A DNA stretch of 64,000 bases from Rhizophagus irregularis (taxonomy: Eukaryota). A model generated the notes under the pieces. The model was not told the DNA's origin. It made no database searches and saw only the letters and a list, made by a program, of their open reading frames with translations. Below are positions 15,019-64,000 of the stretch, piece by piece. A program made the position numbers and the translations under genes. Location: contig NC_089435.1 in assembly GCF_026210795.1 (NCBI RefSeq), positions 1,674,001 to 1,738,000 of the forward strand. The letters are read 5' to 3'. Every line of letters starts with the position of its first letter. Positions within the stretch are counted from its first letter, which is position 1.

Positions 15019-17040
15019 TCAAGGATAAATTTTACCAAGTTTTTTAATACAAATACCGTAAGGTCTAATATCATCACTTTGTGGACTAATCCAATATTCG
15101 CCAATACTAGTGTTAATTTTATTTAAAGTTTGAGGATTTACTCTATTTTGAAATACAAGACAATAAACTTCGTTATTATGAATAAATTTATTAGCAAATA
15201 AAGCCGCAACATTGATATCAGGAGTAGAATAAATTCCATATCCAAATTTAAATCTTTTTCCCTTTGTAATATCAAAACCAGTTTCAGCAATTGATCTTGC
15301 ATTAAATTTATCTGTTCCATGATAAGAAACAGGCCATTCGTTTGGGTCTGATTCATAACGCCAAGATCCTTTTTTAGCTGCTTTACCTAACCAAGCATTA
15401 TCTCCATATTTATTTAATACTTTAACGGCAATTCGTTTCCAACCGCACGGTCTGCGATATTCGTACGATCCTCTCATAAATTTTATATCATCAACAATAT
15501 TCGTAAAATCACAATCATACATTGGATCAAGGAAATCTGAATCAATAAAATTAATAACTTCATTATTTTGGCCAATCAAATTAATCATTGCATTATTATT
15601 TAATATATTATAATCTAATAATGTTAGATTATCTTTTAATAAAATTCCCGAATAAATCAATCGTTGTTGATTTGATGGAATTCTAGTTTTACTTTCAATA
15701 TGAAATTTTATGACAGAAATTTTTGCGATAATTGGAACATTTTTAATTGGAATTATTTGTCCATTTAACGTGCAAATTCTAATGACTATCATGGTCGGTT
15801 TTTGAGAAATTTGATTAGAATTTTGCTGAATTTGTTTAGAAATTTGTGACTGTTGTGAATGCTGCGATTGAATTTGTTGAGAAAGTTGCGATTGTTGCGA
15901 TTGAATTTGTTGAGAAAGTTGCGATTGTTGCGATTGAATTTGAGAAAATTGCGATTGTTGCGATTGTTGCGAGTGAATTTGTTGAGGAAATTGCGATTGT
16001 TGCGAGTGAATTTGTTGAGAAAATTGCGATTGTTGCGAGTGAATTTGTTGAGGAAATTGCGATTGTTGCGAGTGAATTTGTTGAGGAAATTGCGATTGTT
16101 GCGATTGAATTTGTTGAGGAAATTGCGATTGTTGCGATTGAATTTGTTGAGAAAATTGCGATTGTTGCGATTGAATTTGTTGAGAAAGTTGCGATTGTTG
16201 CGATTGAATTTGTTGAGGAAATTGCGATTGTTGCGATTGAATTTGTTGAGAAAATTGCGATTGTTGCGATTGTTGCGATTGAATTTGTTGAGAAAATTGC
16301 GATTGTTGCGATTGTTGCGACTGAATTTGTTGAGAAAATTGCGATTGTTGCGATTGTTGCGATTGAATTTGTTGAGAAAATTGCGATTGTTGCGATTGTT
16401 GCGATTGAATTTGTTGAGAAAGTTGCGATTGTTGCGATTGTTGCGATTGTTGCGATTGTTGCGAGTGAAGCGCTTGCAATTGTTGAGATTGAATTTGTTG
16501 AGGAAATTGCATCTGAATTTGAGACAATTGCGATTGAATTTGTTGAGGAATGTGCGATTGAGCTAGTTGAAAAACTTGAAATTTTTGGGCAATATGCTGT
16601 TGAAAAGGGAAAATTTGTTGAGAAATTTGTTGAGGAAGTTGAGTAATTTGTTGCTGTAAAGAAGACATCATAAAATTATTCGGGTTTACAATAAAACACT
16701 GCGTATTATTTGCAGAACAAAAATGAGAAGATTCTTGAGTAGAAAAAGAGGTATCAGAAGCAAATTGGGAATCGGAACAATCAATATCATGTTGATTGAT
16801 ATTTTCGTTTCCTTGCGAAGAATAATGAGGATCAAGATCATCATTATTATTTTGTACTTCCCCACCAGCTAAATAAGAACTATGGAGTGATACTGGATTA
16901 ATGTTTTGATAAGTAGCGTTATTTATCCCATTGTGTATTTGATTCAAATACTCTGATTGTGATATAATGGATAAACCGGTCAATGATTTGAGGGCTGCAG
17001 CAACAAGTGATGAATTTGAATTATCAAAATTGTATGCCAT
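15019..17040 (-). CDS. Gln-rich repeat + ubiquitin-like domain + PARP/ART-like (NEURL4-C/Gig2-type) domain protein, about 673 aa
   Basis: Ubl segment IVIRICTLNGQII...IPSNQQRLIYSGILLKDNLTLLDYNI; ART-like motifs WPVSYHGT, GIYSTP, GEYW and IRPYGICIK. First ATG at 17040 (MAYNF). Confidence 0.8.
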   Translation of the reverse strand: MAYNFDNSNSSLVAAALKSLTGLSIISQSEYLNQIHNGINNATYQNINPVSLHSSYLAGGEVQNNNDDLDPHYSSQGNENINQHDIDCSDSQFASDTSFSTQESSHFCSANNTQCFIVNPNNFMMSSLQQQITQLPQQISQQIFPFQQHIAQKFQVFQLAQSHIPQQIQSQLSQIQMQFPQQIQSQQLQALHSQQSQQSQQSQQSQLSQQIQSQQSQQSQFSQQIQSQQSQQSQFSQQIQSQQSQQSQFSQQIQSQQSQQSQFSQQIQSQQSQFPQQIQSQQSQLSQQIQSQQSQFSQQIQSQQSQFPQQIQSQQSQFPQQIHSQQSQFPQQIHSQQSQFSQQIHSQQSQFPQQIHSQQSQQSQFSQIQSQQSQLSQQIQSQQSQLSQQIQSQHSQQSQISKQIQQNSNQISQKPTMIVIRICTLNGQIIPIKNVPIIAKISVIKFHIESKTRIPSNQQRLIYSGILLKDNLTLLDYNILNNNAMINLIGQNNEVINFIDSDFLDPMYDCDFTNIVDDIKFMRGSYEYRRPCGWKRIAVKVLNKYGDNAWLGKAAKKGSWRYESDPNEWPVSYHGTDKFNARSIAETGFDITKGKRFKFGYGIYSTPDINVAALFANKFIHNNEVYCLVFQNRVNPQTLNKINTSIGEYWISPQSDDIRPYGICIKKLGKIYP
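15846..16560 (-). repeat. Coding minisatellite encoding (SQQ)n SQF[S/P]QQI[Q/H] units
   Basis: Units of 33-42 bp built from 9-bp TCGCAACAA subunits. Confidence 0.9.
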
Positions 17041-18837
17041 CTTTGATATATTTTTCTTTAAAAAAGAAAAATATATCAAAGATGGCATACAGAGTTTATA
17101 TAAAAATTTTCCCCCATTCAACATTCAAATATTACTTAATTTAGAAAACTCAATGAAGGTGATCATTTTCATTAGAATTAAATTTTTAATTTATTAACAT
17201 AAAAATTTATTAAATTTTTATAAAAAAAATTCTTGACTTTTCGTCCAAACGGCACACCGTAGTCTTATATACATTGTAATGTGCTTAAAATAACCATATA
17301 TCATATATCTATTATATAATATAAAACATATATATTAGAAACTATTATAAAAGTGATATCCTCGATTTTATCAGTTTGGAAATTAAAACAATGCGGTACA
17401 AGCGGTAGTTCTTTCAAGGATTTCCAAATTAAGAAGTTCATTCAAAGTGGGATTGGATTAGAACTGCAAAAACACAAAGAAAAAAAAAATTAACGTTTAT
17501 TAAACTAAACATAGAAAATAGATTTTTTTGGTTAGATCTATTAATTTCAAATGAAGTAATATACAGTAATATTGTTTGTTAATAAATCTGTATATCTGCT
17601 ATTCATGCAGGAGTTCATTTAAAAAAAAACGGTTAAAAAATTATTTATTATTAAAAAAATGTTGTGTTACAAATAATCTGTTGATACTTTTGAATAATTT
17701 CTTTCAAATTGGCGATACATTGTAAAGCTTCCTTTTAGATAGTGTTTCAAAGAGTCATATTTTCTTTGAATTCATTTGATGGCAGATTATCTATTATATT
17801 TCAAACGGACTAAAAGTCAAACAAAACTACGATTACAATAAAATAAAGTAACAATCAAAGTATTAAGCACTCGGAGCGAAAGTTGTGAAAGAACCGATTT
17901 TCAACTCCGGTGACTCCGATTCACTGATATTCTCTGAAGCAATAATAATAAAAATTATAATTTCCGCAAAAATAAGTTTGAAGTATTCTCAGCAGGATAG
18001 CCAAAATAACGATATTTGAAGCTTAAACAATGAATAGATCCAGCTTATAAGAGTTCAATACTATATTTGCACTCCATAAGTGCATACCTCTCTAAGTGTA
18101 CACTTCCGCTATTTTTTTACTAAATGGTTTTGCAGACAAATTTGACTGCAATTTTTTAAAAAAAAATAAATAATTATTGAGGAATTTTCTCAATATTGAT
18201 CAGTTTCGCCAGCCATCAGATTAATTTATTACATTTATTTTTTATCATTAAAGACTTTAAAATTCTAATAATCAAAAAGATTTCTAATTTTTATTTTCTT
18301 GTAAGCTCTATTTAAAGTCGTCAAAATTCCACTTCTAGATCCAAAAAAATTACCATATTGAAGCTACAAATTTTCTTAAAATACTCAACAAAATCACCGC
18401 CAAAGATGAAGAATATTCAAAGAAATACATTTTTAGAAGTAAAAATTTTGACTAATATTTTTCAATATCTGGTTAAAAAACGAAGGTCATCATTATGTGT
18501 ATATATAAGTTGGTTTAGCTATTCAAAATTTTTTTTAAAAATTCTTTGATTCTTGATTCTGATTATTGAAAGTAAGCGAGAATTTATAATATAAGTTTCA
18601 TAAATTTTATTTAATACATTATTCGATACTAAATATACTAAATCCACCAAAATAAACTCGCTTTTTAACTATAACTAAAAAAATTTTTTTTTTTTTATAA
18701 AAAAAATTAATAAAAAAAAAATAATGTTTTATGAAATTAATTACATAATATTTAAATCTTATAATTACATATAAAATTTTGTGCATCACTTCTAAACTAA
18801 CTATATACATAGTTTTTACCAATTAACAGTTTCAAGC

Positions 18838-21800
18838 TTATCTACGTCTCACCCACTTTTTCTTCTCCTTAGGATCTTTAGCAGGCGCATTTGCTGCTTC
18901 ACGAGCAGCATTACGGGTGATTCGTTTCGTTGGAGGCTTTGGATAGCGTCTCCTATCATTAATTGGACGAGATCTTCGAGGAGCGATCGAATCCTCATCT
19001 GTAGAACTACTACTACTACTACTGAGTGACCCTTTACGAATTTCCTTCCTAAATTTCTTCCGTGAAGATGCAGCTATGGCCGCTTCTCTTTCTCGTTGAC
19101 GTTCTCGGGATCTTTTCTTGTTGATTGCGTCTTTAGAAATAGTAACTTCTTTCTTGCTTTTATTTTTTTTAACTGTTATTTGAATAGTTTCTGACTCAGA
19201 TGATGATGTCGATGACGTTGCAGATGAAATTTCTTTCCTCTTAGCTTTTGTTCTTGCCGACGATGAGGATATTTCTTCCTCCTCGGACGAGGAAGAGGAA
19301 GAATTGCTCGATGATGAACTTTGCGATTGCTCTTTTTCTTGTTCATCTTGAGGTTCTTCTATAGTTAAAGATGTAGTATTTTTCTCTTTTGTTATAATCA
19401 TTTCGCTAGTGGGGTTTTCACTCAAATCTTCTTGCAGGTTCGTTCTCACTGAATTTTCAGGGCTCACAGTATTATTATCTGCATCAGGGTTCTTTGATTG
19501 ATTGTTAATATCCGAATTCATTTGTTTCTCCGGATTTGTAGACGTAGTATGCAGGGGTTCATCCAATGGTGCACTGAACGTAGATCGAAATGGTAAGACA
19601 GGTGGCGCAAACCACTTTCTTGGTGGAGCTGTCGCGGGCTTTGAATAATCAGGATATGAAATCGTTGGTTCTGGTGGTGGTAACACTATATTGTTTCTTC
19701 GTGTCGCTGTAGTGACTAAAGGTGACATTGGAATCGTTGACTGATTAGGAGCCGTTGACTGATGGGGAATCGTAGACTGCATAGGAATCGTCGGACCACC
19801 TGTCGACTGAATGGAATTCATTGAACACGTCGACTTATTGGAGAACATTGTATTTGTCGATTGAATGGGAAACATTTGGCTGTTCTGTTGAATAGGATAC
19901 GTTTGATTTGTTTGCTGAATGGGAAACATTTGATTTGTCTGCTGAGTGGAAAACATTCGACTTGTCGGCTGAATGGTAATCATTGGACCTGTCTGTTGAA
20001 TAGGATACATTGAGCCTGCCTGCTGAATAGGATACATTGAGCCTGCCTGCTGAATAGGATACATTGAACCCGCCTGCTGAATAGGAATCATTGAGTCCGC
20101 CTGCTGAATAGGATTGCACAGTTGACCTACTTGTGGACTTGTCTGTTGAATGTTCGGCCTAATCATTACTGGACTTTTTGGCTGAATAGGAATTGTATTC
20201 GTCGACTGAATTTTAATTCGAGCCGGAATGTACCATGCGTAAGCTTTTTTTGATGAAGATGAAGGAGGAGTTGATCTTACATCTTTAATAGAAGATGTTG
20301 ATTGTGTAACTGATGCTACAACGGGAATCATTGAGCCCGCCTGCTGAATAGGATTGCACGGTTGACCTACTTGTGGACTTGTCTGTTGAATATTCGGCCT
20401 AATCTTTACTGGACTTTTTGGCCGAATAGGAATTGTATTCGTCGACCGAATTTTAATTCGAGCCGGAATGTACCATGCGTAAGCTTTTTTTGATGAAGAT
20501 GAAGGAGGAGTTGATCTTACATCTTTAATAGAAGATGTTGATTGTGCAACTGATGCTACAACTTTAGCAGCAGATGATTCAGATGATTGTGTAGCTAATG
20601 TTATATCTTTAGAAGTAGACGATGATTCCAGTGATTGTGTAGCTGATGTTGCACCTGTAGAAGATGATGATTGTGTATCCGGTGTGTTTTTTGAAGATGA
20701 AGAAGTTGATTCCAATGATCGTGTAGCTGATGTTGTTGCATTCGACAATTCTATTGATGGTGTAGTTGATGTTCCATCTTTAGCAGAAGATGATGATTCC
20801 GATGATTGTTTAGGCGATGTTACATTTACTAAATTAGAAGATACTGACACTACATTTGAAGCAGGTGATGATGAATCCAATGGTTGTGCAGCTGATTTCT
20901 CTTTTGATGACGAAGACGATGATGATTTTGCTGAAAGTGATGGAGCGATTGACTGAACATTTGTAGATGTTGATGGAGTAGTCGTTGGTGGATTATTTGA
21001 TGGAACATCTGGTGGAATAATAATTGATAAAACAGTATTAATAGTTGATGGAATAGCTGATGAAGTAGTAATTAATAATGATGAAGTAGTAGTTGCAGTT
21101 TTTGATATAACAGTTGATGGAGCAGTTAATGAAATATTTGGTGATGGAGCAATTGATGAAGTAGTAGCTAATGATGATGGAGTATTTATAACCAACGTTG
21201 AATTATCAATTGGTCGTGGCATTTTCGGTATTTTCGCCAAGCTACGCTCACTTGCTGCATTATACGGGCGAGCATTATCCCTTGCCTGAAGTTGACTCTT
21301 AAACTCTGTTTGTCTTGCCTTCATATGGATTGGATATATCGGAATAGGCCGATATAATGGAGGATTTTCACCAAACACGCCCAACTCCTTTATTGTTGGC
21401 AAGCTAATACCTAAAGTACCTGTAATACTTGGAGAATAATCCGATTTCTGATGTTCATTTCCTAAAAAAGGTAAATATATTAAAGACATCTTTCTATAAA
21501 ATGGCTTTCTTAAGCGAAACACACATGCACTTAAAATTTCTTACCTTGCTGCTGCTGCTGTTGATGTTGATGTGGTGGTGATGGTGGTTGTTGTAGTTGT
21601 GGATATGGTAATTGTGGTTGTGGTCCTTTACCTTTCTTATCTTTATCATTAACAAATGAATTTGGAAGCATATGACTAAATTGCGATCTTTGCTTAAGAA
21701 TAACGGGTCTATTGGTTTGTTTTTTATTAGATTGACGTTTTGGACGGTTCCCAACAAATCTGACAACGTTGATAATATTGCTAACATTGCTAATTTTGCT

Positions 21801-22769
21801 AATACTGGTAACATTGTTCTCATTATAATTGCTATATTTATGAATATCGGCAAAAATATTGCAACTAATGTCGTTAGCATTATAACCATTATTAACATAG
21901 CTGACAGAATTACTAATATTGGCAGGCTTACTAACACTGGCAACATTGGCGGCATCACTAATATCGACGGTATCACTAACATTGACATCATCGTTAACAT
22001 TGGTATTATCGCTAACTTCAGCAACATCGTTAATTTCGGCATCACCGTTAGCTTCAACATCACCGTTAGCTTCAACATCATCGTTAACGTCGACTTCATC
22101 ATTAACTTTGAAATTACCTTTGACATTATCGATATCATCATTAACTTCGATATCATCGTTAATTTCGGCATCATCGTTAATTTCGGCATCATCGTTAATT
22201 TCAACATCATCATCATCGTTAATTTCTATATCATCATCGTTAATTTTTATATCATCATCGTTAATTTCTATATCATCATCGTTAATTTCTATATCATCAT
22301 CGTTAATTTCTACATTATCTTTAAAATCGCTACATGAGTCATCTCTTGCACCACCATCAATTCCTCTTAAATTAACCATAAATTTAGCAAGTTCTAATTC
22401 TAAATCTTCAGATTTTCTTTGTTCAGGACCTGTTAATCTGGAACTTTCAGAACTTTTTGATTGTTCTAAACCAGAAGAAAAACCGGTACTAGAATGATGA
22501 GCGGGAGTGGAAGTAAATTGAATATTAGGTAAGCTTCTAGTTTCAGAAGGAGAAGAGACAGTTGAAATAATAGGGGGAGGATAAATGTAACCAACGTTAT
22601 GAGGATATGGTAAATAATCAAAAGAATTTAAATGGTAAATATTTGAATAAGGATATCTATTAGGCACATTAGGCATAATGGGAGTAAAAGCAGAATTTCT
22701 CTCATAACCATTAAGGTGCCTTAATTCTTCTTGTATTTGAGGGTCTTTATTATTATATACAGATTCCAT
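18838..22769 (-). CDS. Large low-complexity protein (about 1280 aa), downstream part of a Zn2Cys6 transcription-factor-like gene; intron 21462-21544
   Basis: A GTAAGA donor at 21544 and TTTTAG acceptor at 21462 join ORFs 21531-22769 and 18838-21522 in frame (QQ-G-NEHQK). Contains DDDIEIN repeats, S/T-rich tracts and a basic C-terminus. Confidence 0.7.
20083..20562. repeat. 240-bp in-frame tandem duplication (2 copies) within the CDS
   Basis: The block VAS..QSTSSIKDVRSTPP...CNPIQQA occurs twice with a 240-bp period. Confidence 0.9.
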
Positions 22770-39273: not shown

Positions 39274-41250
39274 TTATCCGGTATCCCGTGATTTTTTCCA
39301 GTTTTTTTATAATTGTCGATCACTATGATAAATCATGTATTAAGCAATAAAATCTTTATATTGTATATTAGGCGTTATTTATATACTACAATATACATCA
39401 ATTGTTATAAATTGAACAATTATTATAGTAATATTTATTTATAATAATTTTTTTTCTTTTTTTCTTTTTATTATTATTAATATCTATATTTTTGTTAGTA
39501 GAAGTTTCCTGTAATGGCCGCTTGTTCTTATTTTCCAATAATTCCGAAGCCTTGCTAAATCCAGATAATACAATTTCTCCATGTTGCATATTGTCATCAC
39601 ATTGCACTTCATTATCATACTGTATTTCAGTTTTTGAGTTGATATCTGACGTATCTTCAGTTAACCTTTGCATAACCGAACCTAGAATCTTCCTTTTCTT
39701 TTCTTTTGTTACTTTAAGGTAATTACGCACTCCTGCAGATGAATTATGACCTGAAATTGCCATTGCTTCAACTTCTTCATTTCCGGCATCAAATATTGAT
39801 TGTATTGCCGTATCTCTTCCTGAATGGTTAGAAATATTTCTTCCGGAAATGTCAATACCGCACGCAATACAGATTTCACGAAACATCCCTCTAATCCGTT
39901 TTTCACCAAGTGCCCAATCATAATACCATTTACCTTTAGAAATTGCTAGTAAATAATATTAAAATTATAGATTTAATGTAATACAATAAAATAAATTAAT
40001 TTACCTGCTGTATTTGTTGAAATTCCTAAGTAAAATTCTTTGGTTATACAATCTGAGGGTCTCATTGAAATATATTTGCGAATATCTGCATTGGGTTCAG
40101 CTTTACCTTTAACATCTGATGGAAATGGAATTTCAAATGTATATTGGTTACTTTCCAACCCTCCTTGATCATTTTTTTGATGAAATTTCTTAAAAATAAA
40201 TCCATTATCTGTATCTTCAAATTGATTAATTAGTAAATTATAATGTTCACCACCTCGTGGACATCCTAATAAACATATCCATAAAAATACTCTTCTAAGT
40301 AATCCTTCAGGATTATTAAAAGACACAGCATCATGATCTAAAATAATTTTTAATTCGTCATTTGTCAAGCCTTCATGTGGCTTTGCCGCGCCTATTCCTA
40401 ACTTTTTCATCTCTTTTAATGTGCCATCAAGAGTAGCATGTAACTTTGGAAAATGATTTTTATCTAAAAGGTTATAGTTCCATTGTGGAATGGTGTCTTT
40501 AAGATGGCGGCTTATTGAAGCAACTGCATTTTTAAGTGAAGCTCTTGAATATCGCTCTCCAGATTTTGTTCTTATACCGTAAATAAACTCGCACATTTCT
40601 TTTTCAATTTGTTGATTAGAGGAAAGTGATTCTAATGTATATTTATAGCCTACATCTTCATGATTTCGCCAAGAATTTAAAATATTAATCCATTTTTTTG
40701 TACATTTAACTGTATTTTGTGGTACATGACTTTCTTGAACCTTTAAAAGTTCCTTAGCTGTAGGTTTAAAATAAGACTAAAAATTTATTAGTTTTTAAAA
40801 TATAATGATTTTAATAACAATCTGTATTTATAAAATACTTACTTCTTTTATATTCTCCATTATTTTACATTGAAATAATGTGCATAAAGAAATTATTGAA
40901 AGAGGTTAAAGAGGTTTATGTAAAAAAATATTAAAGGAGGTTATATGTAAAGAAATTATAAAAGAGGTTCGTGTAAAAAAAAAATTAAAAGAGGTTACAC
41001 GTAAAAGAGATTATGTGAAGAGAAAAAAAGCTTAAAAAAGCTTAAATAAATGATTTGTAATCACATAATCACAGGATACCGGATAAATCACTTATTCGGC
41101 ACTTCGAACCGAATAACTAACGCCACCTAAAGGTAGCTTATTATATTGGGAATCAAATTTGATCAGTTGATCGCGGAGCCCGGATCAACCAATCAAATTT
41201 GATTTACCCAATATAACAGTTATTCGGCACTTCGTGCCGAATAACTATTA
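39274..41250 (-). mobile_element. Crypton-type tyrosine recombinase transposon
   Basis: The recombinase gene is bracketed by a 20-bp inverted repeat (39274-39293 and 41067-41086, one mismatch), with hairpin-rich DNA at 41091-41250. Boundaries are approximate. Confidence 0.7.
39398..40860 (-). CDS. Crypton tyrosine recombinase (DUF3504/ZMYM-like region + catalytic domain), 445 aa, 3 exons
   Basis: Exons 40860-40843, 40776-40005 and 39945-39398 total 1338 nt and are open. Catalytic-type residues lie in PRGGEH, NHSGR, SGH and VRNY. Confidence 0.85.
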
Positions 41251-41489
41251 ATTATTGATCAGTCATTCGCATTCTTGATCAACGATCACCTGGCTCTGAT
41301 ATAGGTGTAATTCCTATATTGGTCAAAATATTTAAATAAGATTAAAATAAAGTCAATATACTTACGAATCTTGGTTTTCCATTCTTCGGAAGTCCACCCA
41401 CAATACAAACTAAATACAATCCGCTATTGAAATAAGTATAACAAATTTTACATTATTCATTTTTAATTTATGTATTAGAAATGGGTTTA

Positions 41490-41722
41490 TATACTTATTA
41501 TTTGATAATTTATAAAAAAAAAAGATTTATTTAAATTACAAACTAAGAAATTTGTAAAATATTTACTACTCTAGTCCTAGTGTTTAAATAATTCTAAGAA
41601 GAGAATACTTATATTTAATATTTGATAAAATATAAAAAAAAGGAATTATTTAAATTACAAACTAAGAATCTTTAAAATATTTTACTACTCTAGCCTTAGT
41701 GTTTAAATAAATCTAAAAAGAG
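41490..41722. repeat. About 117-bp tandem duplication downstream of the kinase stop
   Basis: TTTAAATTACAAACTAAGAA...TACTACTCTAG..TAGTGTTTAAATAA occurs twice. Confidence 0.7.
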
Positions 41723-41908
41723 TAAAGTGAAGAACAATTTTTTGTTAAATGCATGATATCAAATATTACAAAAAAAAAAGCTATATCTTTTTAAAACACA
41801 AATAATTAGTTAATTTTCATTTGTTTTAATATCTAAATATTAAATAAATAAATTAATTAATTTGTAAATTAATTTATTTTATATTATACCAGCTAAATTA
41901 TATACAAT

Positions 41909-44900
41909 TTACATACCTAATTTCAGCATACATTCATTCAAGTCTTCGCTTACTAGCATTTCACTCACTTGTACAGTAGTTTGTGAATTTTTACTTTCAA
42001 GAATTTCATTCAATTGTTTACTAGTAAAATTAAGTAAGCGACTTGTATAGCAAGCCTGTGAGTGAGATTCAGTAGCAAGATTGTTATGCCCAATTGGTGC
42101 ATTTATAAATTCCATAATATTGCATTTTAATTCTTCATTAATATCTTCAATTTTTTTACCACGAGGAAGAGAAGTCCATTCAAGAATAATTTCTAAAACT
42201 TCCTTAGAAGATGGTCTTTTTAATGGATCTTCATCCCAACATTTTTTCATCAAATCAACATAGCATTGTGGAGTATTTTCAATAATTTCAGGACGTTCAC
42301 CTTCACAAATACTTAAACTAAGTTGAATATCATGTGCTCTATTATTAAATGGTGGTATTCCAGATGTAAATTCCCACATAATCATAGAAAAACTATATAT
42401 ATCACTAGCTGGAGTATAAGGTTTGCCTCTTAATACTTCAGGTGCCATAAATGGTACAACACCATAAATATTATGTTCTTCCAATAATGATTTTACAGGT
42501 TGACATAATCCTAAATCACTAATAAAAATTTTACTCTCATCATGATTTAAAATATTGCCATCATGAAAATCATGATGGATAAGATTTTGATTATGTATAT
42601 TTTTAAGTCCAGAAATAATTTCATACAACATGCATAATTTTTGATCCCAACCACTTTCAACTATTCTTGTTAAGTTTCCTCTTAAATTACCTTTGTTTGC
42701 ATAATCCATTACCGCCATATATTTCAAAGTATCTGGATTTTTTGTAAATCCATAAAAATAAATAATTTCATATGAATCTAAACAACTTTCATGATATTTC
42801 CACTATAAAAAATAATAATATATTAATATAAGTACATTATAATTTAAATTAAAAAAATAGTAATATACTATCATACTTCATTTAAAAATTCATTTAAATT
42901 TTCATTTAAATTATCATGACATTTAAGAATTACTTCTCTATCTTTATTATTATACGACCAAATGGCTTTGTATATAGTACCAAATCCTCCTTTATTAAGA
43001 TATTCAACATTTTTAAAATTATTATAAGGAATCCGTATTAACTTTTTTTCAAAAATAAATTCATCCATGATTTTGTTTTCACTTTGTCCAAATCTACAGT
43101 ATAAATTTAAATAATTAAAATTATATAAAAGTTTATAATAAAATTTACACTAAAATTTAAGATTAAAATTAACACTTACTCTAAAATTTAAATAGGAATT
43201 TGAGATAATTTATGTCTTAGTTTTTGTATAAATATATAATAATAAGCTATATTTCATAACTTACCAACTAAAGTAATAGAAATTTTAAAAGAATACAGTT
43301 AGCAAATAAATATCTAGCAATAGAATTAAATAAATAACGTACCATCTATAAAATAATTTTTTAAATAAAGAAATTTAGTTAGTTTAAATTATATGTAAAT
43401 ATTATAACAATAAGTTAATAATAGAATTAAATAAATAACTTACTCCCTATATTATTTAAATAATTTTTTAAATAAAGAAATTTAGTTAGTTTAAATTATA
43501 TGTAAATATTATAACAATAAGTAATAATAGAATTAAATAAATAACTTATGACTTACCAACTAAAATAAATTACAAAATAATTTTTTAAATAAAGAAATTT
43601 AGTTAGTTTAAATTATGTGTAAATATTATAACAATAAGTAATAATAGAATTAAATAAATAACTTACGTTCTATTAGTAAATAAATAAAGAAATTAGATAG
43701 TTTAAATTATATGTAAATATTATAACAATAAGTAATAATAGAATTAAATAAATAACTTACTCCCTATATTATTTAAATAATTTTTTAAATAAAGAAATTT
43801 AGTTAGTTTAAATTATATGTAAATATTATAACAATAAGTAATAATAGAATTAAATAAATAACGTACGATCTATAAAATAATTTTTTAAATAATAAAATTT
43901 AGTTAGTTTAAATTATATGTAAATATTATAACAATAAGTAATAATAGAATTAAATAAATAACTTACTCCCTATATTATTTAAATAATTTTTTAAATAAAG
44001 AAATTTAGTTAGTTTAAATTATATGTAAATATTATAACAATAAGGAATAATAGAAATAAATAAATAACTTACTCCCTATATTATATAAATAATTTTTTAA
44101 ATAAAGAAATTTAGTTAGTTTAAATTATATGTAAATATTATAACAATAAGTTAATAATAGAATTAAATAAATAACTTACTCCCTATATTATTTAAATAAT
44201 TTTTAAATAAAGAAATTTAGTTAGTTTAAATTATATGTAAATATTATAACAATAAGTAATAATAGAATTAAATAAATAACTTACGAACTATATTATTTAA
44301 ATAATTTTTTAAATAAAGAAATTTAGTTGGTTTAAATTATATGTAAATATTATAACAATAAGTAATAATAGAATTAAATAAATAACGTACCATCTATAAA
44401 ATAATTTTTTAAATAAAGAAATTTAGTTAGTTTAAATTATATGTAAATATTATAACAATAAGTAATAATAGAATTAAATAAATAACTTACGAACTATATT
44501 ATTTAAATAATTTTTTAAATAAAGAAATTTAGTTAGTTTAAATTATATGTAAATATTATAACAATAAGTAATAATAGAATTAAATAAATAACTTACGAAC
44601 TACATTATTTTAAATAAAGAAATTTAGTTAGTTTAAATTATATGTAAATATTATAACAATAAGTAATATTAGAATTAAATAAATAACTTACGAACTATAT
44701 TATTTAAATAATTTTTTTAAATAAAGAAATTTAGTTAGTTTAAATTATATGTAAATATTATAACAATAAGTAATAATAGAATTAAATAAATAACGTACCA
44801 CCTATAAAATAATTTTTTAAATAAAGAAATTTAGTTAGTTTAAATTATATGTAAATATTATAACAATAAGTAATAATAGAATTAATAAATAACTTACGAA

Positions 44901-47900
44901 CTATATTATTTAAATAATTTTTTAAATAAAGAAATTTAGTTAGTTTAAATTATATGTAAATATTATAACAATAAGTAATAATAGAATTAAATAAATAACT
45001 TACTCCCTATATTATTTAAATAATTTTTTAAATAAAGAAATTTAGTTGGTTTAAATTATATGTAAATATTATAACAATAAGTAATAATAGAATTAAATAA
45101 ATAACTTACTCGCTATATTATTTAAATAATTTTTTAAATAAAGAAATTTAGTTAGTTTAAATTATATGTAAATATTATAACAATAAGTAATAATAGAATT
45201 AAATAAATAACGTACCATCTATAAAATAATTTTTTAAATAAAGAAATTTAGTTAGTTTAAATTATATGTAAATATTATAACAATAAGTAATATTAGAATT
45301 AAATAAATAACGTACCATCTATAAAATAATTTTTTAAATAAAGAAATTTAATTAGTTTAAATTATATGTAAATATTATAACAATAAGTAATATTAGAATT
45401 AAATAAATAACTTACAAGCTATTATTTAAATAATTTTTTAAATAAAGAAATTTAGTTAGTTTAAATTATATGTAAATATTATAACAATAAGTAATAATAG
45501 AATTATATAAATAACTTATGACTTACCAACTAAAATAAATTACAAAATAATTTTTTAAATAAAGAAATTTAGTTAGTTTAAATTATACAGTATGTAAATA
45601 TTATAACAATAAGTAATAATAGAATTAAATAAATAACTTACAAGCTATTATTTAAATAATTTTTTAAATTTAGAAATTTGGTTAGTTTAAATTATATAAT
45701 ATTATAACAATAAGTAATAATAGAATTAAATAAATAACTTACTCCCTATATTATTTAAATAATTTTTTAAATAAAGAAATTTAGCGTTTATTATATGTAA
45801 ATATTATAACAATAAGTAATAATAGAATTAAATAAATAACTTACTCCCTATATTATTTAAATAATTTTTTAAATAAAGAAATTTAGTTAGTTTAAATTAT
45901 ATGTAAATATTATAACAATAAGTAATAATAGAATAAAATAAATAAATTTCTACAAGCTATTATTTAAATAATTTTTTAAATAAAGAAATTTAGTTAGTTT
46001 AAATTATATGTAAATATTATAATAATAAGTAATAATAATAGAATTAAATAAATAACTTACTCCCTATATTATTTAAATAATTTTTTAAATAAAGAAATTT
46101 AGTTAGTTTAAATTATATAAATATTATAACAATAAGTAATAATAGAATTAAAATAAATAATCTTACTCCCTATAATATTAAATAATTTTTTAAATAAAGA
46201 AATTTAGTTAGTTTAAATTATATAAATATTATAACAATAAGTAATAATAGAATTAAATAAATAACTTACGAACTATATTATTGGGGCCACTTTAAATAAA
46301 GAAATTTAGTTAGTTGAATATATATAAATATTATAACAATAAGTAATAATAGAATTAAATAAATAACGTACCATCTGTAAAATAATTTTTTAAATAAAGA
46401 AATTTAGTTAGTTTAAATTATATGTAAATATTATAACAATAAGTAATAATAGAATTAAATAAATAACGTACAATCTATAAAATAATTTTTAAATAAAGAA
46501 ATTTAGTTAGTTTAAATTATATGTAAATATTATAACAATAAGTAATAATAGAATTAAATAAATAACGTACCATCTATAAAATAATTTTTTAAATAAAGAA
46601 ATTGTTAGTTTAAATTATGTGTAAATATTATAACAATAAGTAATAATAGAATTAAATAAATAACTTACGTTCTATTAAATAAATAAAGAAATTAGATAGT
46701 TTAAATTATATGTAAATATTATAACAATAAGTAATAATAGAATTAAATAAATAACTTACGTTCTATTAAATAAATAAAGAAATTAGATAGTTTAAATTAT
46801 ATGTAAATATTATAACAATAAGTAATAATAGAATTAAATAAATAACTTACTCCCTATATTATTTAAATAATTTTTTAAATAAAGAAATTTAGTTAGTTTA
46901 AATTATATGTAAATATTATAACAATAAGTAATAATAGAATTAAATAAATAACTTACTCCCTATATTATTTAAATAATTTTTTAAATAAAGAAATTTAGTT
47001 AGTTTAAATTATATAATATTATAACAATAAGTAATAATAGAATTAAATAAATAACTTACTCCCTATATTATTTAAATGATTTTTTAAATAAAGAAATTTA
47101 GTTAGTTTAAATTATATGTAAATATTATAACAATAAGTAATAATAGAATTAAATAAATAACTTACGAACTATATTATTTAAATAATTTTTTAAATAAAGA
47201 AAATTAGTTAGTTTAAATTATATGTAAATATTATAACAATAAGTAATAATAGAATTAAATAAATAACGTACCACCTATAAAATAATTTTTTAAATAAAGA
47301 AATTTAGTTAGTTTAAATTATATGTAAATATTATAACAATAAGTAATAATAGAATTAAATAAATAACTTACGTTCTATTAAATAAATAAAGAAATTAGAT
47401 AGTTTAAATTATATGTAAATATTATAACAATAAGTAATAATAGAATTAAATAAATAACTTACGTTCTATTAAATAAAGAAGAAATTAGATAATTTAAATT
47501 ATATGTAAATATTATAACAATAAGTAATAATAGAATTAAATAAATAACTTACGTTCTATTAAATAAATAAAGAAATTAGATAATTTAAATTATATGTAAA
47601 TATTATAACAATAAGTAATAATAGAATTAAATAAATAACGTACCATCTATAAAATAATTTTTTAAATAAAGAAATTTAGTTAACTTAATTGTATTACAAT
47701 AGAAATATAGACATCATATAACTTACACCCTGAATTATTATTAATTTTTAATTAGTTAAATATAGATATAAATATAATAGAAAGATATTCACTATAAATT
47801 GAATATATTACTTACAATCTATTTATTTTAAATTAAGAATATAATTAGTTAAATTATATTAAAATATTAATAAATAAGTCTAATATTAAATATAGCATTC

Positions 47901-48196
47901 TTAAGTATTATAACTTACCAGCTGTAATAATATTTAAACATAGAATTTAGTTATTTGATTATTATGTAAAATAAATAGTAAAAAACTAAAATTTAAATAA
48001 CTGATAACTTACAAACTTATAGTATTATTAACCATAAATAAATTATTTAGTTACATAGAATATAATGATAATAATTAATTTTTAATATAATTTTTATATA
48101 ATATGATAGTTAGTTTATATTTGCAAAATTGTTTAAAAATTTGATGGGATAATTCTAATTTTATTTTATAGCTGTATGATTACCTTTATGATCCAT
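41909..48196 (-). CDS. Tyrosine-kinase-like protein kinase (predicted 422 aa, 52 exons) whose N-terminus is assembled from microexons
   Basis: The kinase exons 43093-42877 and 42802-41909 are solid (KGGFGTIYKA, VILK, HHDFHDGN, DLG, APE, DIYSF). The upstream model is inferred from splice signals: exon 48196-48184 (ATGGATCATAAAG), 48 three-nt exons and a 1-nt exon at 43180. Total 1269 nt, in frame, no stops. Confidence 0.75.
43180..48015 (-). repeat. Tandem array of ~80-115-bp intron units separated by 3-nt microexons (homogeneous core about 43320-47680)
   Basis: Every core unit reads YAG-NNN-GTAAGT or GTACGT on the minus strand (two donors are GTAGAA and GTAAGA), and most carry AACTAAC about 35-40 nt before the AG. 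Confidence 0.9.
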
Positions 48197-50444
48197 TACT
48201 ATATCAAATTCTTCCTAATTGGAAAGATAAAGTGAATATGTATATCCTTTTTTCTTTTTTTTTATTTATCTTAAACGCCTTATTAGTACAGATATTAAAA
48301 TGGTAATAATATTTATGCAAAACGCATTGTATACAAAATGTTGATCGCAAGTACAAGTTGTATGACGCATGTCCGGAATGCATGTTGTAAGACCTAAGTC
48401 CGTATAATAATACGTTTGCCACCTTAGGACTTAACAAAATAATACTTTATTAATAATATAAATAAATACAATAATATGCTTAGTAGTTTAACAATACTAT
48501 AAAATAATAACTAAATATTTATCCAAATATTTCCCTAAATTCGTAACCTGATTTTCCACAATGTCGCCTTTATACAAAGAAACTTCTGCGCATCCCTTTT
48601 TATTAGTTTAACTGCAAAATCTGAAAATATCCTTATCTCATATAACTTTATACTCATAAAAACTACAAGTATTAGTACTTGTTATTTTTCATGTTTTTGA
48701 AATTTCCATTTTTCTTCGTTTTTGATCTTCAAAACCCTTTCCTTAAATGTTAATATCCTAATTATAGATTCTTTCATCATGATCTACAAATCAATCACAT
48801 GATTTCCAATCATCTGATAATCATCTGACTTAAATCTTTCATCTTGGACGTTACATTTCAATATTAAATACTAAAAATTTTAGAAAAAAAAAAAAAACTC
48901 TTCCCCCTTTCCGTCTGATTTCATAGAAATCCGCAGTATACACAAATTTTTTATTTTTTAAAATTTTTAACCCTTTACGTTGGTATAAAAGGAGTGAGGA
49001 CCACTTGGTGGCCTCGACAGAAAGTTCTCCTTAATACACCCCGTTGCTTTTGGAGAGTATTTTATAATAGTATACCAAATATTTTTATCATTATAACACC
49101 TTTGAATATTTTACCTTCCTTTGGGAAAAAAAACCCCTCTGACGCTTCTGCTTCTAAATCGCACGTGACCGTTCCTGATAAGGATGGTTACAACAAAAAA
49201 TCTTTACACAAAATACGTAATATTTTTGCTTATTCATTTCAAACTCACAAGCTTAATCCATATATAGTTAACGATACACGAGGTAGTGGTACCTTGTATA
49301 ACACCAAAAAAAGTAGATACTTCCTTATGGAGTTACACCCAAATGCTGATCTTTGTTTAACAAAGAAAAATTCTTTCAACGTCTACACCAATGATATTGA
49401 TATGCATAATGATCATCAGAGGATCTTCAACTCAACTAGTAAAAAAGTTAATCTTAATTACTTGATAGGGACATATCTCGCTTTTATATTCACAGGTCGA
49501 ACAGATGTCATTGTCGCAAAATTTGCCTGGAATTTTTCTGGCAAATTGAGAATTATCCCGGTAAATTGGGGTAAATTGTGTTACAATTTTGGGATAATGG
49601 AGGACTTACAATTTGGCAAATTTTGTCAAAATGGCGGAATTCCTACAGAATTCCTAATTCAAATATTGAGAAATTTTTCAGTAAATTATCATTAATTGTG
49701 GGAAATTTTAGGTAAATTTTTAGTAATTTTATGTAAATTGTAGTGAATTTAGTCAAATTTTTAGTAATTTTATGTAAACGTAATGTGAATTTAGTCAAAT
49801 TTTTAGTAATTTTATGTAAACGTAATGCAAATTGTGGTGAATTTAGTCAAATTTTTAGTAATTTTATGCAAACGTAATGCAAATTGTGGTAAATTGTAAT
49901 GTATTTTTAGTAATGTTATATAAATTGTTGAAAATTTAGGTGAATTTTTCAGCAATGTTGTGCAAACGTAATACAAATTGTGGAAAATTGTGGTGAATTT
50001 TGCATTTTTTCGGTAAATGTTAGCTAAACTTTTGATAATTTAGTGAAATTTAGGATAATTTTGGACAATTGAGTGAAAAATGTTTTACTGATTTTGTACA
50101 ATTGAGTGTAAACAGTATAAACGCAACATTTTCGGAGACAATTTAGTGAAATTTTGCAATAATTTCGGACAATTGAGTGAAATTTTGCAATAATTTCGGA
50201 CAATTGAGTGAAATTTAGTAATAATTTTAAACAATTTAGTGCAAATACCATGACAATTTAAAACACTGGTTTAATAATTTTACATAATTTATTACAATAT
50301 TATTTATTAACAAATGCACAATTATTATTTAACGATGAGAATCTATATTAATCTATATTCATCAGATATCCAATGATCCATGGGTAATCCGCACATCTAA
50401 TTCATTCATGTATCTCCGATGCCAAAGTAGAAGCTGGTGAAAAC

Positions 50445-58935: not shown

Positions 58936-61521
58936 ATGGCAACAAGCAATCGAACTTGTGATAGATGTGGAAAGGCTTTTGCAACTCCACAAAAGCTTCG
59001 TGGGCATCAAAATAGAAAGTTTCTATGCAAGCCTGCAGCTAAACCTCAGGATCCCACACCTGAGATTGTACAATTGCAACCACAACTGGAGCAATTCCAG
59101 GATCCCACACCTGAAATTGTACAATTGCAATCACAACCGGAGCAACTCCAGGATCCCACACCTGAAGTTATCCCAGCTCATGCAGAGAAAACTCCTAACT
59201 TAACAATTGATGAACTAGCAAAATGGTTAGCAGAACCTGGTGATTACAATCAATATACTCCACGAAAAAGAAGAGCTCCCCAAACAGATAATGAATGGTT
59301 TGCTTATATGCAAGGAGATTATAGAGGAAGATGGTGTGATATTCAATTTGTAAAAAGAGTTCATGATCCTGCACGTTCACATAAATCTCTAAAACATAAG
59401 ACAGTATGGCAAGCTAATCTTAAACCAAATGTTAGAGATATACCATATTTTCCAAGTATAATAGCTGATACCCGTCAGAAAATAACAGAAATTCTTGAGA
59501 GTGAACTTGAAGAAAAAGGGCAAATCAAATCAGCTATCACTATATTGGCTACATATACAGATAATAGTGGAACAAATAAACAAGTTTATCATAGAGGAGT
59601 CATGCGTGTACTTCTTTTAAAGAATGATATAGATGATCATTTAACAAAATCAGCAGTGGATATCACGGATAAAATTGTCAAATTTATGAAAGGAGGGTCT
59701 GGTTGGAAAATTGTTAGTATAGATATATTAACTATTGAGACGTATACTTACCGCCGAGCAGAAGGAAGCTCATACATTCTTACACCTAAGGCACTTGCAA
59801 ATAAGAAGTGCACTATCAATCCGGATAACAAAGATCTCATAGATCCGGACACAGGCTTGCTCTCTGAAAAATGTTTGCAAGGGGCTTTAGGTGCTTACTT
59901 TGCATATAAAGATGGGCATACACAAAAACTTGAGCGAATCTTTCGGGCAGAAAAATTTAAGCCATACTTGGAACAAGTCAATCTCAATGCAATTCCCATG
60001 CCCACTCCTGTTTATCCACGCATATTTAGCAAGATTGAGGACCTCAATCCTGAGATCTCCATTAATGTATGGGAATGGGAGGAGAAAACTGGTATTCCAA
60101 AACCTGTTATTGCAAGTAAGAATTACAACCGTCAACATATCATTCACCTCATGGCCCTTACAGATATTACAAAATCAGATGAAGGAAAGTATGGTCAGAA
60201 GAATCACTTCCTTTGGATTAAGAATCCTGATGCTTTAATATACAAAGATACATCCCACAAGGGAAAGAAGCATCTTTGCAATCGGTGCTTCCAAAGCTTT
60301 CCATTGTCTAAATCTTTAACTAATCATCAGGAATGGTGTTTTGGATTAGGTGAGACACCACAAAGAGTTGAGTTACCAGTTAAAGGTAAGAATGATTTTG
60401 AGGAGTTTAAGAATTTTAACCGAACAATGTATGCTCCATGTGTAATTATTGCAGACTTTGAGGCTGATAACAGAAAGTGTAATGAAAACTATGGTGGAAA
60501 TATGCATAAGATTATGGAGCAAAAGGCTAATAGCTTCTGCTATATGGTCCACTGGATTGAAACTGATGAGACATGGGGGCCATTCTTATACCGAGGACCA
60601 AATGCAACAGAAGAGTTTGTCAGCAGACTTGATAAAGAATTAAGAAGGATTAATGATGTTTTAGAAGTAAAAGTAGAACGTATTATAACAGAGGAAGCTA
60701 AAAAGGAATTCACTGAAGCAGTTAGTTGTTGGATATGTAATGGAAATTTCAATCAGGGCATGCAAGACAAAAAAGTTTGGGATCACTGCCACATCACAGG
60801 TAAGTTTCGTGGGGCTGCTCATAATGCATGCAATCTTAAGCTTCAAATCGAAGCATGGAAGACTCCAATTCCTGTAGTATTTCATAACTTCCGTGGCTAT
60901 GACTTCCATTTAGTTTGTGAATCTGTTGGACGATCAATTGGAGCATATCAAATCAAAGTTATTGCAGAGACATTCGAACGTTACAAATCCATGAAGGTAG
61001 GGCAATTCAAGTACATTGATAGCATGCAGTTCATGTCCTCCAGTCTTGCAAACCTTGCAAAGAATTTAGGGACAGATAAACCCCTCACAAAGCGACACTT
61101 CAAAAACTTCTCGTCTGAACATATTGACTTAATCACACGTAAGGGGGTTTATCCTTATGAATATATTGATTCACATGATCGTTTCAAGGAGACAGAACTC
61201 CCATCTATTCATGACTTTCATAGTACTCTTGGAGGAAAGATCACTCAGGATAATTACAAACATGCACAAAAAGTTTGGAAGGAATTTGGCTGCAAGAACT
61301 TGGGCGAGTATCATGACCTTTATCTTAAGACTGATGTTCTTCTCCTAGCAGATGTCTGGACAAAGTTTCGACAGACAGCGATGCATCATTATGGACTTGA
61401 CCCAAGTCATTATGTCTCTGCTCCAGCACTTTCATGGGATGGCATGCTTAAGATGACTGGAGTCAAAATAGAGCTATTCACTGACATGACCATGCATGAT
61501 TTTACTGAAAAGGCTAAACGT
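58936..61521 (+). pseudogene. Polinton/Maverick-type protein-primed family B DNA polymerase, truncated before the polymerase domain
   Basis: N-terminal C2H2 finger (CDRC..H..), a second Zn finger, exonuclease motifs ADFE, HNFRGYD and YLKTDV, endonuclease-VII-like DHCHITGKFRGAAHNACN, and RKGVYPYEY. Homology stops at EKAKR, where RGG and the polymerase motifs should follow. Confidence 0.85.
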
Positions 61522-64000
61522 TGTAAACGGTCGAATATCAAGCATGAGAATATGATAAAATTCAATCACCAAATGTAATTGTCAAATATTAAGAACGAAC
61601 AAACTAATTATGAATTGGCGTGGATGGATAAATAATTAGCCAAAAAGGATAAACATTTAGAAAGAGTAATGATCTGCATGATGTAATATTTATTGAATGA
61701 TTGACAAAGAACCAATAGGATAAATAGAGTCGATCAATTGGGGCTTAGCAATCTTTAACAATAAGAACGATAAGAAAGAATAATTATAAGCCACAAAAGA
61801 TAGATTATAAGTAAAACATATAAAGCGGATTAAAAGAACATATAAAATAATGTCAGAAAGATTAAAGAACGTAAAATAATATAAAAGATAATATAAAAAG
61901 ATAATACAAAGATACTATAAAAGATAATATATATATATAAAAGATAGCATATTAAAAGATAGCGTATTTAAAATATAGATAGTATATTAGGAAGATAGTT
62001 CAAAGATAATATGTAAAAAGAACATAAAAGATAGTATATAGATAGAATAGAAAGTAGCGTAAAATTTGTATAAATAGAGAACAGAATTCAAAGTAATTCC
62101 ATAGTTCTCATCCACAGAACTCAATAAAAATATAAGTTTTATTTAATTATTTGTTAATGAAGTTTAATGTTAATTAAAGGTAATAGGTTCGCCCTAAACT
62201 TTAATTAATGTTCGCTTAATTAATTTTAATTAAACAAATGAAAATTTTAAGATGAATTAAATATATGTTTTTGAAAAGTAATAATTCGTAGCGAGAGCTA
62301 TCGAAGTTTGAAATTAAAGGTAAAAGTGGATATAATTTGGGGAAAATTTAGAGAAGTTAATTTTATTTTATATCGTTCAACGTTTTATATTACTAACGCT
62401 ATTTATTTTGTGAACCAAGAATGTTGTTGTATGTTGTTCGTTAATTTTGTTGTTTGTTAATTATGTTGTTGAGTAATCGCTTGTTCGTTTATTTGTTTGT
62501 TTGTTTGTTTGTTTGTTTGTTTGTTTGTTTGTTCGTTCGACCATGAGAAAGCCCGTTCGATGTGGTAACTCTGTAAATTGATGACAGGGGGAATTGGGAG
62601 ATCTCATATGGTGCATGCTCGCAAGAAAGGAAATGATCATCATCACATGATTATTATTATAATGAATATGAAAATTTAATTTCGTTAGTAAGTCACTGAT
62701 AGGTATTATTAATCAATATTTTATTTTAGAATTTATTTTTAGATTTCAGGTTTTGACGAGTTCAAAAGGAACCAATAAATCAATGAGGATTTAACGTGTT
62801 AAAAACTTGAAAAGGTGAAAGATTGGGGTTTGAAGTTGTGCAAGTAATCATTTAATCGATAGAAAGCACAAGAATATTTCTTTCGGGAATAAAGTACCTG
62901 AGAAATTTCATAAGGAGATGGGGAAGCGAAAGATGAATTTTAGAATAAAGATTAATAATGGGAGAACACCAATGTATTATCTGGGGTTCATCTGTGTGGT
63001 ATGGGTTATCTCTGAGTTTGAATTTTGGATAAATGCTCGAGATTGGAAAACTTTTATTCTTCGACATTAAAGATTATAACGTATGGGTTACATCAAATCT
63101 GGATACCCAGCTCAATAATGCGCAAATTGCTTTGGGGACAGGGAATGAAAATTGTAAAGACACCTACTATCAAGAAATATTGAAAGAATAAAATAGGACA
63201 AACCTGTAAACTATCATGCTTTTACCCAATGGGAAAAAGATAGAGATAAGCCCAGTATAGGTCCACCAATTTGAGGAAAGATAAGTTGGTTTAGATGAGT
63301 TTTATGGATAGCTGATGACTTTTGAAACTGGATTTTGGAAGGTTAGATTCACCCGTTAAGAGACGAGTCGGCCAACGAAGGAGGAGAAGACGGATACGTT
63401 GTATTGTTACAGGTCCTAGGCTACATTTCAGATGAGGGTTCCTGGTGTAGTGTGCTAGGTCACGTTCTCATTACAATGTTCTGTTAAAAGAAGATAACAT
63501 AGAAGGATATTTACACATTAACGAGCCGTATAATGAACATTACGTGCAGTATTTAATAATAGAGTAAAATCCGAAAAGAAGGACATTTATTTAAAAGAAG
63601 AACATTTGTTTGAAAAAGAATATTTATTTGAAAAGGAACATTTATTTGAAAAGAAGGATATTTATCTGAAAAGAACGACATTTTGTGTGTTATAGATTAA
63701 TTTATATAATATAGAATATATAGTAAGAAGGATTTATGTGGACGATAAGAAAGATTGAAAATTTGCAAACTTTAAAAGTTATGAAAATTTTGGAGTTTGT
63801 GATATGTGATATGTGAAATTATGAATCTCGGTGATAGAAGATAAATTTTAGAATGTGATATTATAGATCTCGGTGACAAAAGATAAACTTTGTGGAGCAG
63901 TAAAAATTAATAGTAAAATATGGCATAGTAAATATATAGAACCGAAAGATGGAATCTAAAGATTGAAAGAAGCAATCTACTTAAAGATAAAAGAATGTTT
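61522..64000 (+). mobile_element. Probable LTR retrotransposon (LTR and leader) inserted into the pPolB gene
   Basis: Abrupt start TGTAAAC exactly at the pPolB break. Candidate LTR ends TTACA at 63091 or 63475. No gag/pol visible in the window. Confidence 0.5.
62482..62537. repeat. (TTTG)n microsatellite
   Basis: Directly visible. Confidence 0.9.

Follow-up and report, generated by a model that had tools for sequence, protein, structure and literature searches.

The window analysed here is a stretch of 64,000 nucleotides (nt) from the arbuscular mycorrhizal (AM) fungus Rhizophagus irregularis (contig NC_089435.1, positions 1,674,001 to 1,738,000 of the forward strand), and all positions given below are counted from its first letter. 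It carries, on the minus strand, a protein kinase gene in which an exon of a single nucleotide, the A at 43180, is spliced in after a chain of three-base exons and before the first kinase exon. The translated kinase part was matched by the Pfam families PF07714 (E = 2.8e-33) and PF00069 (E = 2e-31), and both the glycine loop (GGFGTIY) and the catalytic loop (HHDFHDGN) motifs are present, which identifies the product as a protein kinase. The best protein matches were found in R. irregularis (96% and 92%) and R. diaphanus (90%). No entry for the exact gene was present among these matches, and no public protein displays the chain of this locus. Judged by its translation, the gene is a member of the expanded Rhizophagus kinase family.

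RNA depth at the kinase end of the gene (41800-43340) was obtained from the contig runs X1, X2 and X3, which belong to three different studies, and from the raw polyA RNA run X22. At the exon-1 end (47690-48700), the polyA runs X22, X23 and X24 and the contig run X3 were used. Twenty listed runs contain at least half of the sampled words from the kinase stretch. Loose ends, that is, the letters running past a match to the genome, were compared over 30 letters each. The three-base exons were predicted by a simple pattern walk along 43265-48015, exactly three bases being required between an AG and a GT donor. The resulting features are listed from the 5' to the 3' end of the gene; L001 designates a paralogous locus that is described further below.

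48184..48268, minus strand: exon 1, consisting of 5' untranslated region (UTR) and the 13 coding bases ATGGATCATAAAG (48196-48184); RNA depth; donor GTAATC at 48183
48016..48183, minus strand: intron 1, 168 nt; acceptor ...ctataag before TTT; RNA joins exon 1 directly to TTT CTG ATT
43265..48015, minus strand: chain of 48 predicted three-base exons, each between AG and GT; pattern walk, RNA at both ends
43181..43264, minus strand: intron of 84 nt from the last three-base exon, TTG, to the one-base exon; GTAAGT...TTTTAG; spliced out of the RNA junction; 3' part kept in L001
43180..43180, minus strand: one-nucleotide exon (A), middle base of the codon G-A-A in the kinase frame; RNA junction; same site in L001
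43094..43179, minus strand: intron of 86 nt from the one-base exon to the kinase exon; GTAAGTG...CTGTAG; RNA depth zero at 43100-43151
42877..43093, minus strand: first kinase exon, A plus 72 codons, beginning ATTTGGACAA and translated as FGQSENKIMDEF...GGFGTIYKAIW...LNEFLNE; RNA depth and contigs
42803..42876, minus strand: intron of 74 nt within the kinase; joint 42802/42877 in all four runs (14 reads in X22)
41909..42802, minus strand: second kinase exon, up to the stop codon TAA at 41911-41909, provided that the GTATGT at 41916 starts no further intron; translation, Pfam and RNA depth

RNA across the one-base exon and the chain

On the minus strand the sequence around 43180 reads ...aaattttag-a-gtaagtgtt..., with a lone A enclosed in TTTTAG-A-GTAAGT, so that a single base separates the AG of one intron (84 nt) from the GT of the next (86 nt). 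In all four runs X1, X2, X3 and X22, the RNA match ended exactly at 43093 and was followed by letters from non-contiguous genomic positions. The plus-strand consensus of this loose end, TCAACATTCCCAAGTTTCCGATTCCTCCTC, was the same in all four runs. It was supported in X22 by 42 reads with an agreement of 0.98, and X1, X2 and X3 each contributed one contig, extending past 43093 by 94, 161 and 171 loose letters, respectively. The reverse complement of the 30 visible letters is GA GGA GGA ATC GGA AAC TTG GGA ATG TTG A. A comparison by script with the predicted chain showed that this string corresponds to the last nine three-base exons, part of the tenth and the single A, in genomic order. The mature RNA therefore contains the base between its neighbouring exons, as ...TTG A ATTTGG: splicing inserts the A at 43180 as a genuine one-nucleotide exon between the TTG exon and the first kinase exon. 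The first-pass annotation of this DNA, which was made from the letters only, had proposed precisely such an exon between the introns 43094-43179 and 43181-43264 and had predicted that cDNA would read ...TTG A ATTTGGACAA; both the exon and the junction were found. A reading of the site as a stwintron was rejected, since the A is retained in the mRNA.

At the other end of the gene, RNA depth begins near 48268, the bins 48166-48267 being covered and almost nothing beyond 48268. Exon 1 had initially been described as 13 nt long. In RNA, its coding part (48196-48184) indeed continues into the first ten three-base exons, but the exon itself is longer, with a 5' UTR of about 70-85 nt. The loose end at 48184, GAACACGTTGTTGTTCATACCAATCAGAAA, was observed in six reads of X22, five of X23 and four of X24. 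It corresponds to TTT CTG ATT GGT ATG AAC AAC AAC GTG TTC, which is the genomic series of the ten three-base exons nearest to exon 1. No contig of X3 matched the exon-1 stretch (47690-48700). The 171 loose letters of X3 at the kinase end would leave 26 letters in exon 1 if all 48 exons were present, a length that is compatible with the full chain and no proof of it. In this way RNA covers 19 complete three-base exons, part of a twentieth and the one-base exon, while the middle 28 of the 48 are predicted only. The message runs from exon 1 through three-base exons in genomic order to the A and then to the kinase exon, and all 48 three-base exons are probably included in it. With regard to alternative splicing of the three-base exons, agreement over the 30-letter loose ends was 0.73-1.0 at the 5' end and 0.98 at the 3' end, and an additional CCC was seen in two reads.

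The latter two reads both come from X22 (47729-48200); besides the CCC between exon 1 and TTT, they have a duplication of 12 nt within exon 1, and each insertion is a multiple of three. No AG-CCC-GT site occurs in intron 1 of the window, and a possible source of the reads is another allele, nucleus type or paralogue that has an additional micro-exon. Moreover, four X23 reads follow the intron after ATT as far as 47803 and then diverge from the window, which points to transcription of a further, diverged copy of this intron region.

The chain consists of tens of consecutive three-base exons (48 predicted), each with its own intron. The first four exons (TTT 48015, CTG 47921, ATT 47818 and GGT 47729) and the last one (TTG 43267-43265) have unique, unrelated introns, and the other 43 sit in a tandem array of ~106-nt units that extends over 43319-47682. 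The introns following the tiny exons (n = 49) measure 75-112 nt, with a median of 99 nt, and an ACTAAC-type branch motif was found in 41 of them, 19-43 nt from the 3' end. Motif matches in the window were compared with the chance expectation and with 100 shuffles. The motif YAGNNNGTAMGT occurs 45 times against 0.71 expected, all on the minus strand within 43259-47924, and none of the shuffles reached 45 matches. Two of the predicted three-base exons have weak donors, GTAAGA at 46169 and GTAGAA at 45956.

Partly spliced reads were also observed. Two of them contain exon 1, TTT, CTG and ATT followed by the unspliced next intron, and two others reach GGT before becoming unspliced; this pattern would fit a removal of introns in the 5'-to-3' direction. 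The same reads bear on whether the joined reads could stem from a processed, intron-less copy at another genomic site instead of from splicing here, a point that arises because the comparison was confined to the window. The partly spliced reads lack the first three or four introns yet retain the one that comes next at this very locus. In addition, the order of 10 triplets at one end and of more than nine at the other is exactly that of this locus, the libraries are polyA RNA, and the intron within the kinase is removed as well. A processed copy is therefore a highly improbable source.

Reading frame and start of translation

The consequence of the single A for the protein was computed with all 48 triplets as predicted. 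Starting at the AUG of exon 1, 422 codons remain open through the kinase when the A is present, whereas a stop is reached after 70 codons when it is omitted. For translation from this first AUG, where ribosomes presumably start, omission of the base thus breaks the frame. The ATG in question is the first one, no other being found in the 79 nt upstream, and its context, atagtaATGG, has A at -3 and G at +4. In the kinase frame the exon borders fall after the first codon base, so every codon of the chain is split into the last base of one exon and the first two of the next, and the codon G-A-A draws its bases from three exons. On the assumption of a start at the first AUG, this agrees with the first-pass annotation, which had held that the A is needed to keep the kinase in frame and that one Glu codon is spread over three exons. 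The chain would then encode an arginine-rich N-terminal tail of about 50 residues ahead of the kinase. The predicted tail is basic, with 13 Arg in the first 58 residues and 16 Lys plus Arg versus 7 Asp plus Glu. As the best joint explanation, it is very probable that A43180 is a true one-nucleotide exon which likely serves as a frame adapter from the out-of-register three-base chain into the kinase.

Since skipping of the A leads to a stop after 70 codons, regulated inclusion of the exon as an on/off switch for the kinase, as had been put forward at first, is mechanistically possible. Against it, the junction with the A was found with an agreement of 0.98 over the 42 reads of X22, and the same form recurs in the contigs of X1, X2 and X3, which stem from three further studies. 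No form without the A reached the listing thresholds in X22, the one raw-read sample at this junction. The switch has found no support in these data and is an unlikely role for the exon.

Comparison with other members of the family provided information on the start of translation. Residues F1, G2, S4, N6, I8 and D10 of the first kinase exon are invariant in nine of nine aligned members, and the position of the internal Met of the window is occupied by Ile or Leu in the paralogues displayed. Furthermore, exon 1 and the first chain codons give M-D-H-K-V-S, and several paralogues begin with M-A-(L/H)-S-N-D-K-V-S. Together, the invariance, the replacement of the Met and the likeness of the K-V-S starts argue that translation begins upstream of the kinase exon.

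The public protein models were surveyed in the same respect. Among 120 listed Rhizophagus models, nine are labelled 'partial' and begin exactly at FGxSxN without a Met, 11 have a Met plus one to three residues before FGxSxN, 23 begin at an internal Met, 27 possess longer, mutually inconsistent N-termini, and 50 are without the motif region. This spread can be explained by the blindness of gene finders to tiny exons, as would be expected, and the N-termini of this large kinase family are probably wrong in the databases. The models P0084, P0165 and P0170 open with N-L-K repeats, which resemble the acidic E-F-E-G-S repeats of P0092 and P0097 one base out of frame. Judging from these protein sequences, the acidic 'EFEGS' region seems to have been translated in a shifted frame ('NLKNLK') in some paralogue models, and the N-terminal frames of the family appear to be inconsistently annotated.

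Based on such models, it could be supposed that the chain and the A are spliced in but belong to the 5' UTR, the kinase being translated from the internal AUG at 43069-43067 (the M of KIMDEF) and the one-base exon having no role in the frame. The internal AUG does open a frame of 361 codons, and the 23 of 120 models that begin at the equivalent Met would agree with it, albeit as automatic predictions. However, eight AUGs precede the internal one, the first of them in good context and in the kinase frame. The residues F1, G2, S4, N6 and I8, encoded from the very beginning of the exon, are invariant in nine of nine relatives, the Met is Ile or Leu in the displayed paralogues, and the nine 'partial' models start at FGxSxN without any Met. 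It is accordingly doubtful, and in our view improbable, that the chain is untranslated.

A number of points weigh against the interpretation of the chain and the A as a translated extension with a frame adapter. The motif YAGNGTAAGT has one match in the window versus 0.50 expected, and 43 of 100 shuffles contain at least one; the motif alone is within chance, so it is the RNA that decides on the reality of the one-base exon. The middle 28 three-base exons lie outside the RNA coverage and some of them may be skipped, and agreement at the 5' loose end was 0.73, 1.0 and 0.8 in X22, X23 and X24, respectively. The evidence on splicing order amounts to two plus two reads, obtained by a method that is blind to the opposite order. 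Translation of the chain is a prediction from sequence, and the phase-1 frame was also open in 30% of shuffled exon orders; an open phase-1 frame was consequently rejected as strong evidence. Finally, when the chain is read exon by exon (phase 0), it gives a G/M/L/F-rich peptide with a composition like that of the N-terminal stretches of P0165, P0138 and P0170, and the usual reading in the family may be phase 0.

According to this last alternative, the chain was meant for phase 0 and a hydrophobic G/M/L/F-rich peptide, and the present copy is either frame-switched or decaying, or else produces a small peptide by leaky scanning. Apart from the composition shared with the three models, seven micro-exons with the sequence ATG each start a phase-0 frame, 20-62 codons in length. 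In this copy, the phase-0 frame stops 18 codons into the kinase exon. Raw local scores against P0165 and P0138 were 41 for phase 0 and 13-17 for phase 1, but phase 0 scored no better than composition-preserving shuffles (z -0.6 to 0.6), so that the likeness to the paralogues is compositional only. It also speaks against phase 0 that the first AUG is in the kinase frame, which is open throughout, that the kinase is intact and expressed, and that the phase-1 start K-V-S matches paralogue N-termini. A phase-0 origin of the chain is considered to have little probability, and the preferred interpretation is still that of an arginine-rich tail brought into the kinase frame by the A. Alignment of the chain with paralogue N-termini was rejected as evidence for either frame (|z| <= 2.0 in all 16 comparisons).

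A paralogous locus and comparable systems

The first-pass annotation had pointed to paralogous kinases as a check, and the site is indeed conserved in L001, the sole relative that was read at the DNA level. L001 is a metagenome contig of 1,740 nt, in which exons are 87% and introns 75-83% identical to those of the window. It reads ...AAATTCCTATTTAAATTTTAG-A-GTAAGT, followed by a 72-nt intron and TAG-ATTTGG, and it ends 51 nt upstream of the A; TTTTAG-A-GTAAGT is thus kept. Since L001 and the window have the same one-nucleotide exon, this exon is older than their duplication. L001 was the one locus that a scan of metagenomes yielded. For further paralogue DNA, a scan of prokaryote genomes gave only L002, an unrelated 38% match in a Bacteroidota metagenome-assembled genome, and a scan of viral contigs gave none.

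One-base exons and arrays of codon-sized exons are each already known separately. In the Arabidopsis gene APC11, a constitutive one-nucleotide exon between GT..AG introns is essential for the frame and was missed by annotation (Guo and Liu 2015, PMC4674806). The kinase gene resembles it in having a one-base exon between GT..AG introns that is needed for the frame. In contrast to the isolated exon of the plant gene, the exon described here closes a run of three-base exons and contributes to a codon spread over three exons. Among fungi, a one-nucleotide exon was reported for the CYP621A cytochrome P450 genes of Fusarium, self-described as the second example and the first fungal one (Nelson and Syed 2026, PMC12940212), and 13 one-nucleotide exons are contained in a long-read annotation of Coprinopsis cinerea (bioRxiv 10.1101/2024.05.10.593147). 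The initial statement that such exons are very rarely documented, with APC11 as the example, therefore has to be extended by these fungal cases. They share with the present exon the support by RNA reads and the break of the frame on omission. As far as these sources go, the Fusarium and Coprinopsis cases concern isolated tiny exons within conserved domains of ascomycete and basidiomycete genes, whereas the present one lies in a kinase of the Glomeromycotina, where a variable N-terminal chain meets the catalytic domain.

For the chain itself, the closest parallel is provided by the nank (NACHT-ankyrin) genes of Tuber melanosporum, which contain dozens or tens of 3-bp mini-exons and undergo alternative splicing (Iotti et al. 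2012, as cited in PMC4986451, PMC3689799, PMC9815663 and PMC13449251). Both systems concern mycorrhizal fungi, and in both an expanded gene family contains dozens of consecutive 3-bp exons. The nank genes, as described in the citing papers, encode NOD-like receptors (NLRs) with the array in the recognition domain, and alternative splicing is stressed. Here the host is not a NACHT-ankyrin NLR but a protein kinase (PF07714, PF00069), and its array is N-terminal, is probably read across exon borders and ends in a one-nucleotide exon. No report of micro-exon arrays in Rhizophagus or other Glomeromycotina was found in the literature searched, whose coverage mostly excluded subscription journals. 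What appears to be new is the combination of a long, border-crossing chain with a conserved one-nucleotide exon, in a kinase family of an AM fungus and with RNA at both ends.

The gene is of interest for several reasons. As many as 50 introns are predicted within 5 kb for ~53 residues, and the spliceosome joins exons of one and three bases repeatedly, which makes the locus a natural substrate for asking how tiny exons are defined and in which order introns leave. It also offers a codon assembled from three exons in a fungus outside Dikarya, as well as an explanation for the systematic misannotation of a kinase family in an important plant symbiont.

Array evolution, splicing order and neighbouring sequence

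Variation among the 43 repeat units is concentrated in the exons. The mean entropy of the exon triplet was 1.71 bits, compared with 0.40 for the 30 nt downstream and 0.91 for the 30 nt upstream, the latter value being partly inflated by length differences. Seventeen units with identical 14-nt and 12-nt flanks carry GGA (11 units), TTC (5) or CGA (1). Higher-order periods of 206 and 312 nt were found in the array (43319-47682). The alignment of the units suggests that unequal crossing-over or conversion homogenises the introns, with differences between the triplets being preserved, as would be expected if the encoded residues matter.

The array may have grown by tandem duplication of units consisting of an intron and three bases, a process that would never disturb the frame, and the one-nucleotide exon, which is also present in the paralogue L001, would be older. 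Units could be gained, lost or skipped without a change of frame, and the one-nucleotide exon would be alone in the chain in shifting the frame if lost.

With respect to splicing, each short intron is seen as a complete unit with near-consensus GTAAGT, ACTAAC and TAG, and recognition could proceed intron by intron. Two spliceosomes would hardly fit on introns that are 1-3 nt apart, hence sequential removal is proposed. The introns would leave singly and mostly from 5' to 3', so that the growing 5' exon would abut the next GTAAGT each time; under such stepwise removal, the tiny exons would never need recognition as exons. A related process is recursive splicing at zero-length exons (ratchet points) in long introns of Drosophila, where an AG is followed by GTAAGT and the intron is removed stepwise in the 5'-to-3' direction. 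The likeness consists in an AG that abuts, or nearly abuts, a GTAAGT which becomes a 5' splice site after removal of the upstream intron. Unlike the ratchet points, which leave nothing in the mRNA, one or three bases are retained at each site of the kinase gene, so these are not exons of zero length.

In a broader joint reading, the array would be a reshufflable, out-of-register cassette, in which each triplet finishes one codon and begins another, so that gaining, losing or skipping a unit would alter two residues at once, and the one-nucleotide exon would be a phase adapter of the family; the phase of exon 1 would decide between a hydrophobic and an arginine-rich tail, and hidden tails would exist in many kinases with an FGxSxN start. 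This reading is tentative and, taken as a whole, rather doubtful. If it were true, many of the hundreds of Rhizophagus kinases with abrupt FGxSxN starts would hide fast-evolving N-terminal tails. Variation of the array between nuclei or isolates, should it occur, would generate protein diversity.

Other features were noted in the vicinity of the gene and elsewhere in the window. The intervals 41490-41722 and 41100-41300, downstream of the kinase, contain two repeats of a 119-nt unit and, just past the 3' end of the gene, short palindromic, GC-richer blocks of the ttattcggcacgaagtgccgaataa type, which could be a small mobile element. Upstream of exon 1, about 50 nt at 48430-48481 show RNA depth with loose ends on both sides in three runs, and are probably a fragment shared with a transcript from elsewhere. 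Long open frames are located at 15019-17124 (minus strand), 58936-61578 (plus strand) and 18838-22769 (minus strand). Among the long frames, one ubiquitin domain (E = 2e-12) and one endonuclease VII domain (E = 7.8e-07) were detected, and Pfam gave no match for two frames of 894 and 412 amino acids. Tandem repeats of 42-94 nt occupy 49671-49991, upstream of the promoter region of the kinase gene.

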